From: Perna viridis
Taxonomy: Eukaryota
NCBI GenBank assembly: GCA_037379345.1
Contig: CM074516.1
Span: 30,541,626 to 30,605,625, forward strand
Direction of reading: 5' to 3'
DNA: 64,000 bases
Part shown: one piece after another, positions 4,354-7,300 of the stretch
Layout: each line of letters opens with the position of its first letter
Position numbering within the stretch: the first letter of the stretch is position 1
Translations under genes and position numbers: made by a program
Notes under the pieces: model-generated
The model's input: the letters and a program-made list of their open reading frames with translations, nothing else
Database searches by the model: none
Told to the model about the DNA's origin: nothing

Positions 4354-7300
4354 GTAAATCTACTACTACTACAAAGGGGAAACCTTCATCATCGTCATCT
4401 ATCTCTGTCTCTTTATCGCCATTGTCATTATTATTATTTTGTGCCTTATGTAGTAGTATCAAATTGGTCATAAGCAATGGCTGATGCAAAAATGATGATT
4501 AGGTCTTTAATAATATATTGAATTTAGGAGGGGAAACTAATGTTTCTTGTCAAATTTCTTCGAAAGTTCTGAAAAAACTGCATATTTAACACCCAATGTC
4601 CATATCAGTAATTAATCATTGTATGTGTTGAAAATATTTCGGCATTTACTGTAGTCCTATTTCTAACCAGGATAAGAAAAAGTATTTTTTTACTTCAAAA
4701 ATATTTTATTGCTAAATTTTTTAACTTGGTGCTTAGAAAATGACAATCCACTTGTTGCAAAATCAAAACCAAGCACACCTTCCACCTGATATTTATAGAA
4801 GTTAGAATAGGGTGAGCTCTATTCCTCAGTCTGCTGATTTGATTGAATTGATCTTTATCTTCTTTGTACCTATTCAAAACCTTAAAAATTAATCGATATC
4901 TGTGACCGTCAATTTTCTAGATTTTGTTTTACTTATAGATTACTCCAAAATTGGCATTTTTTCCAGAACAGTTGTCTCTTGTTATTGAACAAAAGTAGCA
5001 ATGATATTTTCCTACATGCAATTTTCTTGTCATAAGAACACATTTAGATTGCAATAGATGTAATTACTCCTATGAATAATACTGTATGATTGTCCTGAGC
5101 AGATTGTCTATGAGGGGATAATAACATGTCTTCCTCTCATATTTCTGTCTCTTGTCATGTCAAAAAATGTCTAAGAATATCAGACTTATTCTGTGCTTTA
5201 ATAGAAAATTCATGGATTTGTCAAAGAAATGAAAAAAAGATTATGTGTTCCTTATGAACTCTTTGATTTAACTGATGAAAATGCCTTTTAGAAAACCTTA
5301 AGTTGAAGGCTTACATGAGGACGCACCTGCACTTCAACATCTAAAATGTAATGCACTAAGCTCTTTACTAATATTTTTCCACAAAAGATGTAGCATTTAA
5401 GTAGTTGTAAAGTAGCTTTGGTACTCAAACTATACTTTATATTTAAAAAATGGGCATTTTGCTTTGTGGAGAAGTTAGATTTTGGTTGGGCTAGAATTAA
5501 GCTGAATGTTTGTGACTGTGTGTTGTATGTAAAAGTCGTTAGATTTTACTGTGATATTTTCCATTTTACATACATTTATATGTAAATACATGTATAATGA
5601 AGTGTTGTTGAAGTGGAAAATCATTCCATTTCTGAGAAATGTTTGTTAATTTTACATTAATAAGTGCTTTTTTCATGAAATAACATCGTTGTATCAATAT
5701 TTTGAGAAAAAAAAACGTCTCTCAGTTTGTACAGAAAATTCTCTCCACCCTCATTTTGAACTGTCTGCATATAAAACTATGACTCACTTTATTGAAATTC
5801 ATTAATGTATACCATGAGAATACACTGAACTATCACTTTATCAAAGCTCATGTTAAATTTAGGCATCATATCTTAGCACTGGTGTAGACATATATTAGAA
5901 TTACATGTTTAGATTTTGATGGCTTTTGGGTCTTCGTGGCAATATAAACTTGATTAATTCCAAAATAGATTTGACAATTCAACTAGTTTGACGTCATAGA
6001 TTGTTTTTAATTGAATGGCAAAGTCATACACATATCTAAATATCATACTTGTGATTTTAGACACAAATTTTACCAATTGTAATCTGAAATAAAGTGAACC
6101 TATTAATTCCCCATACCAATCAATTGTAAAGATGTAAATTTTCCATCAAACTTTCTAATTTTTATCAGTCTCCAATGATTAACCAATTTCTATTGAGAGA
6201 TATAATCGTTGTATATGTCTTCTATGATTGCTTTGTACAGGCAACTGTGATTTAGGATCTCACATTGTGTATTGTATGTAGAACCAATGGGATGAAAGAT
6301 GTACATAGATAATTTATTTGTTGATTTCTTCTCATTTGCATAATTTGTATTAAGTGTTTGGTCACAATGCATTGTTTTCTCTTTTTGTTATTGTCTTTTC
6401 AATTTCCTTATCATTTGAGGCTATATTGCCTGTCTTGTCTATAATAGACTAAAAAGCCAATTATTATTTATATCACTTTTTCTTGCATATTAAGTACAGG
6501 TTCAACTGAAGTTGTGCAGGGTGTGATAGGTCCATATTTTTACCAACTTGCCTAATAGTTTGAATGCTTTCGGCATGTCATACTATTGATTTAAGAATCA
6601 ATAAAAGTAATGAAGTATGTTTCAAAAGCGGAGAAAAATATCACATGATTACATAGTGTACTGTTGTGATTAAAGTGGCAGGAAACATTCTATAGATAGA
6701 TTTCAACTAAACTGACTTATTTCATGACTATTCCAACCTTAGAGAAAACTGTTATAGTGGTATTTTATTATAGATGCGACTTTTCAAAATTTTTGTGGTT
6801 GTTTTGGAAGTTGATGTCAATGTACAGCTGAAATTCTTTATTTTCATGATTCTTTGGTTCAAGTGAACCTGTACTTGTAAGATAAAACATTTTAATAACA
6901 TAATGTATTATGACCAAACATTGTCATTTGTCGTGCAACAAAATTTCATGTAAATGTGATTTAGAAACTGTCAAAGTGATTTTTTTATTTTATTGTATTT
7001 CTACCTCTGTGTTACAGCTGTAGAAGTTTTTATTACAGAAATAAAACGTTTTTCCTACAATTTGTATACCTGTTGTGTTGTTTGTTATATTCTAAAGAAA
7101 TGATGAGTTCTAGTAAGAAGCACTTAATCCACTTCTACCACATTTTTACACTGATAAACTGGTCCGACAGTTAATTAATCAGATTGATTAAATAGGCATG
7201 TTTCATTTGAGTTTCTTTTTGTACAATCTAATTAAAATTAGACCTATCAATTGTTCTATTCAGTCACTGCATCTGATCAGCCAATCAGATTTCATCTTTC

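Follow-up and report, generated by a model that had tools for sequence, protein, structure and literature searches.

The NELL gene of the bivalve Perna viridis almost certainly gives rise to a short isoform by reading through the splice donor that follows its EGF2 exon, and the 43-residue tail acquired in this way is, to judge from its sequence, very probably a GPI signal rather than a segment with some other fate. With the isoform close to certain and the GPI assignment strongly favoured, a spliced read-through transcript encoding a 525-aa NELL with a GPI-anchored end is the best explanation of the data, and a probable one. Molluscs are then likely to make a cell-surface NELL, which would signal by contact rather than by diffusion.

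Gene layout and the read-through transcript

The window, a 64,000-nt stretch of the genome (G000:C6:30541626-30605625), was searched for exons together with 120 kb upstream of it. Tblastn with the Mytilus edulis NELL (P0003) gave collinear exon matches of 48-83% identity from ~42 kb upstream of the window to position 40494. Altogether, 20 exons were collinear with Mytilus NELL, encoding a signal peptide, LamG, coiled coil, two VWC, six EGF and three VWC domains in this order, which is the layout of the NELL family at the level of the gene, and the long frame was open to its stop. Exon 1 (locus L007), ~50.8 kb upstream of the window, encodes a signal-peptide-like segment of 20 residues (8-mer hydropathy 4.09), like that of Mytilus NELL.

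The exon at 4213-4353, which is coding exon 12 and common to the short and long isoforms, encodes EGF2, as indicated by 77% identity to residues 417-463 of Mytilus NELL and a match to PF07645 (E 1.3e-8). Contig matches begin at 4211, and the stretch 4200-4500 has a single match in the genome. The initial annotation, made from the letters of the window, had called this the first EGF exon, which is true of the window only, EGF1 being located ~300-430 bases upstream of it. The correction matters because the cut then falls exactly after the VWC1-VWC2-EGF1-EGF2 module. In the relative P0018, a short protein of the mytilid cluster with matches in both Pfam and PDB, residues 40-478 matched the NELL2 chains 10ft_B and 9pwq_B (E 3e-101), and the Cys motifs flanking the coiled coil, through which NELL proteins form trimers or dimers, align with NELL2.

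The EGF2 exon starts at an acceptor (ag/AT at 4213) and ends at the donor AGG/GTAAAT, with the intron beginning at 4354 and the split codon GGT at 4353-4355. Splicing in silico and reading through this donor gave an ORF of 525 aa (20 + 1 + 504) open to 4484, which consists of the signal peptide, LamG, coiled coil, VWC1-2, EGF1-2 and a 43-residue tail (GKSTTTTKGK...KLVISNG) followed by TGA at 4482-4484. Both the open frame and the loss of the later EGF and VWC domains had been anticipated in the initial annotation; the product stops 43 residues after EGF2, without EGF3-6 and VWC3-5, and hence does not have the full NELL layout. The features of the short isoform are as follows.

4351-4359, + strand: phase-1 donor AGG/GTAAAT, read through for the short form and presumably used for the long form
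4353-4484, + strand: read-through coding extension, 43 aa and TGA (translation; bridged by contigs of 4/4 runs)
4356-4400, + strand: Ser/Thr-rich stalk, with the Ser codons at 4386-4394 as predicted candidate omega sites (hand-made rule)
4419-4475, + strand: hydrophobic C-terminal segment, two residues before the stop, with one Lys inside (Kyte-Doolittle)
4485-7059, + strand: ~2.6-kb 3′ UTR of the short isoform, with a putative 3′ end (contig pieces)
7040-7090, + strand: candidate polyadenylation signal, CA and T/GT-rich tract (sequence; one contig ends at 7054)

When 4353 was joined to 18304 instead, the frame stayed open through eight further exons to a stop at 40513-40515, giving an intact long form of 835 aa. 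We infer that in Perna viridis the gene also yields this protein, as a secreted NELL, through donor 4354. The exons of the long form in the window are listed below.

18304-18426, + strand: EGF3 exon, the first exon specific to the long form (tblastn, splicing in silico)
24428-24520, + strand: EGF4 exon (tblastn, splicing in silico)
32723-32863, + strand: EGF5 exon (tblastn, splicing in silico)
37519-37635, + strand: EGF6 exon (tblastn, splicing in silico)
38739-38821, 39492-39662, 39819-40055 and 40420-40515 with TAG, + strand: four exons for the C-terminal VWC domains

Several other features were observed in the window. The last part of the EGF6 exon recurs in tandem at 37636-38137, apparently together with its donor, so that the copies could supply competing donors, and a long G/T-skewed tandem repeat is intronic at 22200-23770. 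On the − strand, B-box (TRIM-like) frames in two pieces lie antisense in a NELL intron (26710-27966; PF00643, E 1.9e-8), and an exon of the next gene, with a sperm-tail PG-rich (SHIPPO) repeat, is found at 60121-60543 (PF07004, E 4.6e-8).

The donor had been described as weak and as non-consensus at +5. The +5 deviation is evident from the sequence, and by match count the site belongs to the weaker half of the donors of the gene, but it is no outlier among the 18: three have a non-G at +5, and nine match CAG/GTAAGT at 6 or fewer of the 9 places. Only donor 4354 combines a non-A at −2 with a non-G at +5.

Transcription across the donor was assessed in assembled contigs from sequencing runs that were guessed to be RNA, none being recorded as such, and that were chosen for containing the 4200-7100 stretch. 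Between 0.60 and 0.97 of the words of this stretch were present in 20 of the 24 runs, and 0.03 in runs X21-X23, about the share expected from the exon alone. Contigs from four of the 24 runs (X1, X2, X5 and X8, one from each of four studies) were aligned to the window. In every one of these, a single unbroken contig crosses 4353 (X1 4211-5549, X2 4211-5054, X5 4211-4516, X8 4211-4530) with well over 31 letters on both sides, so the transcript continues past the donor as had been predicted. The remainders of these contigs (1576 letters in X1, 441 in X2, 24 in X5 and 282 in X8) have no match to the upstream intron in the window, and the contigs therefore behave as spliced RNA, leaving the genome at the acceptor. 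By length only, the upstream coding exons, 1306 nt in total, fit within the 1578 nt that precede 4213 in X1 record 5, and the surplus of ~270 bases in X1 over these 1306 coding bases would be leader. No loose contig end at 4353 was present among the matches listed; contigs drop rare variants and so provide no isoform ratio, and they give no strand, expression level or true RNA end.

The AATAAA at 7040-7045 and the GT-rich tract downstream, where the transcript had been proposed to end, are present, with a CA at 7058-7059 and the T/GT-rich tract at 7061-7090. Contig pieces cover 4485-6937 in all four runs and reach 7054 in one, ending there 9 bases after the AATAAA, at a contig end that cannot show an RNA end. 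The other three end at 6932, 6933 and 6937, so that the anticipated drop in coverage near ~7060 was approached in one run and preceded by earlier ends in three. These earlier ends adjoin a G>A difference at 6933 and could represent two short allelic tips dropped by the assembler or an earlier polyA site. The contigs run past the nearer AATAAA at 6088 and 6600 and ATTAAA at 6669. Depth bins over 7401-11000 were 0 in X1 and X2 and at most 1.07 in X5 and 1.56 in X8, which fits a 3′ end near 7.0-7.1 kb but was not counted as proof because no DNA run was compared. Taken together, the polyA site at 7040 is weakly supported as the one used. Two multi-copy elements with many different flanks, at 3545-4008 and 7223-7331, reached summed contig depths of up to ~16,000 and ~350, respectively; neither matched Rfam, and the whole of 3400-7500 gave 0 Rfam matches.

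We propose that splicing at 4354 competes with cleavage near 7059. Use of the donor would produce the 835-aa secreted NELL, whereas skipping it would lead to cleavage near 7059, leaving the EGF2 exon terminal in a transcript that ends ~2.6 kb into the intron. The short protein would enter the ER, where the 43-aa tail would be cleaved at a Ser encoded near 4386-4394 and replaced with a GPI anchor. The coiled coil would oligomerise the tethered protein, and LamG together with VWC1-VWC2-EGF1-EGF2 would be displayed to neighbouring cells or matrix in the absence of EGF3-6 and VWC3-5. A single choice between splicing and polyadenylation would in this way set the range of the ligand.

The C-terminal tail as a predicted GPI signal

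GPI signals carry small residues at omega, omega+1 and omega+2, a polar linker before them and a hydrophobic C-terminal segment, and a cluster of small residues ahead of a hydrophobic core at the C-terminus favours GPI transfer. GPI-anchored proteins also have an N-terminal signal peptide, are cut at the omega site, are joined to the anchor through ethanolamine and can be released by PI-PLC. The short form has a signal-peptide-like start, a run of Ser as the predicted omega region after a polar linker, and a hydrophobic C-terminal segment without a cytosolic domain, two residues following the 19-mer. As the initial annotation had noticed, the tail begins as a Ser/Thr stalk (10 of the first 16 residues are Ser or Thr) and ends hydrophobic, its best 11-mer, 15-mer and 19-mer having Kyte-Doolittle values of 2.52, 2.42 and 1.94, respectively.

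To these features we applied a hand-made GPI rule, which was assembled from general features of GPI signals, written after the tails had been seen and unvalidated on known GPI proteins. It called for a length of 22-70, an 11-mer of at least 2.2 near the end, a small-residue triplet 6-18 residues before it, a polar linker and no more than two charges after it. The read-through of donor 4354 passed, with tail positions 11-13 and 17 (counted from 0) named as candidate omega sites, and none of the other 17 donors did. When the 4282 intronic GT positions of the gene were read as G/GT starts, seven passed, an intronic background of 0.16%. Read-through of the other donors reached a stop within 20 codons in 13 of 17 cases. 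That of donor 39663 (39663-39806) extends for 48 aa to a strongly hydrophobic end (11-mer 2.76) and has no omega site by the rule.

Conservation among molluscs and alternative explanations

In the initial homologue search, a Logan protein with a tail of this kind was recovered at 59% identity over 99% of the 89-aa query. Short NELL proteins that end in a hydrophobic tail, 26-61 residues past the last Cys of EGF2, were found in 16 mollusc genera, of which eight are bivalves (Mytilus, Ostrea, Crassostrea, Magallana, Saccostrea, Argopecten, Dreissena and Mactra) and eight gastropods (Haliotis, Gigantopelta, Littorina, Babylonia, Nucella, Elysia, Bradybaena and Biomphalaria). Many of the records are Logan contigs of 1.7-4 kb, transcript-sized with the library type not given, or RefSeq models. 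The initial annotation was to be given up if reads past 4353 stayed at intronic background and orthologues had no hydrophobic extension; we found contigs crossing 4353 and an extension at the same junction in the 16 named genera. Genera are the fair count because about half of the 47 rows that end 15-80 residues after EGF2 are oysters. Thirty-seven of these rows passed the GPI rule, five are mollusc-type tails that failed one clause, and the remaining five are fragments or off-register matches. Failures thus amount to 5 of 42 mollusc-type tails and, counted separately, to 3 of 5 Haliotis tails.

The tails share a layout, not a sequence. The tail in the window resembled all four Mytilus-cluster tails above shuffles (2-11 of 1000 half-shuffles), about one in 11 of the other tails exceeded half-shuffled controls and 10 of 11 did not clearly do so, and BLASTP with composition adjustment gave no significant match to two Mytilus-cluster proteins (E 0.65 and 14). 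Across genera the tails retain their position and hydropathy while the sequence drifts, as is expected of GPI signals; independent origins of the tails are possible.

Reading through a phase-1 donor gives G+GT, so a Gly at the junction is a mark of G/GT read-through. In all seven clusters with both long and short records (Mytilus, scallops, Haliotis, venerid clams, Biomphalaria, Elysia and Babylonia/Nucella), the short protein has Gly at this position and the long one Asp or Glu. The tail is hydrophobic in six of the seven, the exception being Nucella P0381, with the junction Gly and a non-hydrophobic tail. In the Pecten model P0326 this tail comes immediately behind EGF2 within a longer protein, suggesting read-through there too. 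The junction Gly is absent from Magallana, Saccostrea echinata, a second neogastropod gene (P0037, P0038), Bradybaena, Dreissena, Mactra and P0058; the Gly-less clusters inspected list no long form, a combination that would fit donor loss or a separate last exon.

Long records are present for Mytilus, scallops, abalone, clams and snails, some as RefSeq models, and seventeen other mollusc genera have long or partial records only. No short anchored form was seen in cephalopods (7/7 octopod records long), Patella (4/4 long), arthropods or vertebrates, a result drawn from few clusters whose representatives tend to be long and not taken as absence. One long isoform of Patella (P0033, P0332) carries an 11-residue insert, Gly first, right after EGF2, as from a second downstream donor. 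Each oyster NELL record seen represents the short form, with none above 528 aa (P0029-P0031, P0034, P0217-P0234, P0374-P0378), and RefSeq isoform X1 is this form both for Magallana gigas (519 aa) and for Crassostrea virginica (518 aa); the secreted NELL may have been lost in true oysters. Three Haliotis species and Argopecten annotate a short NELL of 510-515 aa plus a separate EGF3-VWC5 protein with a neighbouring accession (P0327, P0328, P0335-P0343). The short isoform accounts for both this split annotation and the 500-aa-only protein of oysters. In neogastropods, the long form and the short, hydrophobic-tailed form seem to come from two separate NELL genes, whose contigs differ in length (P0032 and P0037 in Babylonia, P0038 and P0381 in Nucella), and the isoforms were possibly divided between genes after duplication.

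The main competitor to a GPI signal is a genuine short isoform tethered by other means, its tail forming a single-pass transmembrane helix that leaves hardly anything in the cytosol, which we consider unlikely. In the window tail, ~20 mainly apolar residues precede a Lys that lies six residues before the end, and with this Lys and only moderate hydrophobicity of the 19-mer (1.94) the tail would also fit a minimal type-I helix; some gastropod tails also run 15-20 residues past the core, and basic residues close some of the clam and Elysia tails. Against such a helix are the small-residue clusters located 6-18 residues ahead of the core in 37 of the 47 rows and the cores themselves, which are often short and Ser/Cys-rich. 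Moreover, in oyster tails the hydrophobic stretch is followed by a single Arg as the final residue, and in abalone tails it continues to the very end, so that no cytosolic domain is left.

Less probable still is a truncated soluble or ER-retained decoy, with an incidental tail or an anchor shed at once. Chicken NEL without the coiled coil and LamG is reported, in the available text of the source, to inhibit ROS1 activation, and contacts between LamG and VWC4, the latter missing from the short form, are proposed there for higher-order clustering (PMC13044245); conservation of the tail sequence only within the Mytilus cluster points the same way. However, a stop codon alone would suffice for a decoy, as at most of the other donors of the gene, and hydrophobicity is instead kept at the same position in 16 genera despite the drift in sequence. 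The least credible explanation, and one that is largely refuted, is a retained intron or unspliced pre-mRNA in which a hydrophobic ORF arose by chance, for although T-rich introns do yield such ORFs, as at donor 39663, and the runs were picked because they contain the stretch, the contigs are spliced at the upstream acceptor, the background of the GPI rule is low, the same junction and kind of tail recur in two mollusc classes, and every oyster record seen is short.

Possible receptor partners and known systems

In the available parts of the published texts, vertebrate ROS1 binds NELL2 via VWC2 (site 1), EGF1 (site 2) and EGF2 (site 3) (PMC13100127), VWC1, VWC2, EGF1 and EGF2 are the domains resolved on ROS1 (PMC13100127, PMC13044245), and Robo3 binding by NELL needs EGF2 and EGF3 together (PMC7083938). 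The short form keeps VWC1, VWC2, EGF1 and EGF2 and loses EGF3, so the pair needed for Robo3 is lacking. Exons of a ROS1-like receptor tyrosine kinase were found on the same contig, ~3.3 Mb from NELL (G000:C6:33815805-33815831; L014:1360-1578 and neighbouring exons), through a kinase motif that had one match in the genome. The best PDB matches of the kinase exon were ROS1, at 109.5 bits compared to 96.9 for IGF1R, and a ROS1-like receptor is therefore likely in the Perna viridis genome.

Because read-through retains the coiled coil together with the module that binds ROS1 in vertebrates but not EGF3, on which Robo binding depends, we tentatively suggest that the GPI-tethered short NELL may be a contact-dependent ligand of a mollusc ROS1/Sevenless receptor, an idea that we hold to be possible but doubtful. 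Against it, only two of the five site-1 contacts (V349, V355, V357, Y359 and L368) are kept, V355 and V357; V349 falls in a gap, and the positions of Y359 and L368 in vertebrate NELL2 are occupied in mollusc VWC2 by a Cys pair, which is found in all 10 protostome rows aligned. At sites 2 and 3, the mytilid-cluster rows and the window retain L416 and D476, which may also be structural, and Y450 is His. The short form is also incapable of the proposed LamG-VWC4 clustering, which tethering might replace. If the suggestion is true, one old switch, kept in bivalves and gastropods, would toggle NELL between a diffusible and a juxtacrine ligand, with the short form fixed as the only form in true oysters, and would connect Boss, which is membrane-bound, with secreted NELL2 as ligands within one receptor family.

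Public databases already contain the short NELL proteins, under automatically assigned NELL names with no anchor mentioned. As far as sequence can tell, the isoform is real and widely conserved and its membrane anchor is well predicted. The full-text literature searched, represented mostly by titles and abstract openings and with most subscription papers outside it, gave no description of an anchored or short invertebrate NELL. NELL proteins are treated as secreted ligands. In the available text, those of invertebrates are said to be unstudied (PMC10084454), and according to a 2026 structure paper invertebrates lack NELL2 (PMC13100127). Vertebrate NELL1 and NELL2 (chicken NEL) have the same collinear domain order as the mollusc long form and are reported to be secreted as trimers that carry six EGF and five VWC domains (PMC10084454, PMC7083938); no anchored NELL was present in the vertebrate records examined or in the literature as covered by our search.

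Some full-length NELL records of chelicerates (tick P0203 and P0050, mite P0093, horseshoe crab P0256) have a hydrophobic C-terminus that is a possible anchor. It follows the last domains of the long form, whereas the mollusc tail follows EGF2, and with this different junction it is probably of separate origin. Overall, 10 of 153 long forms score at least 2.2 and three pass the hand-made GPI rule; the hydrophobic-tailed long records, from tick, mite, horseshoe crab and butterfly (P0050, P0203, P0209, P0215, P0093, P0202, P0256, P0265, P0266), would represent a second route to a tethered NELL.

NCAM-120, GPI-ceruloplasmin, the acetylcholinesterase H form and CD58 are GPI isoforms made from an alternative last exon or alternative polyadenylation. 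As in these genes, a single NELL gene would change the attachment of its product through an alternative 3′ end. Unlike in them, the GPI-like NELL signal is a direct read-through of a phase-1 donor, ~350 ectodomain residues are lost, and the other product of the gene is a secreted ligand. Should the ROS1 reading be correct, short NELL would be membrane-bound like Drosophila Boss, the ligand of Sevenless (dROS1). Boss itself is a GPCR-type protein unrelated to NELL that binds another receptor site (PMC13100127), and it is suspected to be limited to Diptera (PMC13232746). A 2026 review, in the portion available, calls it a mystery that the ligand of Sevenless has to be membrane-bound when NELL2, the ligand of ROS1, is secreted (PMC13232746). 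A putative surface-anchored NELL that carries the domains contacting ROS1, encoded in a genome where a ROS1-like kinase is also present, makes this question testable.
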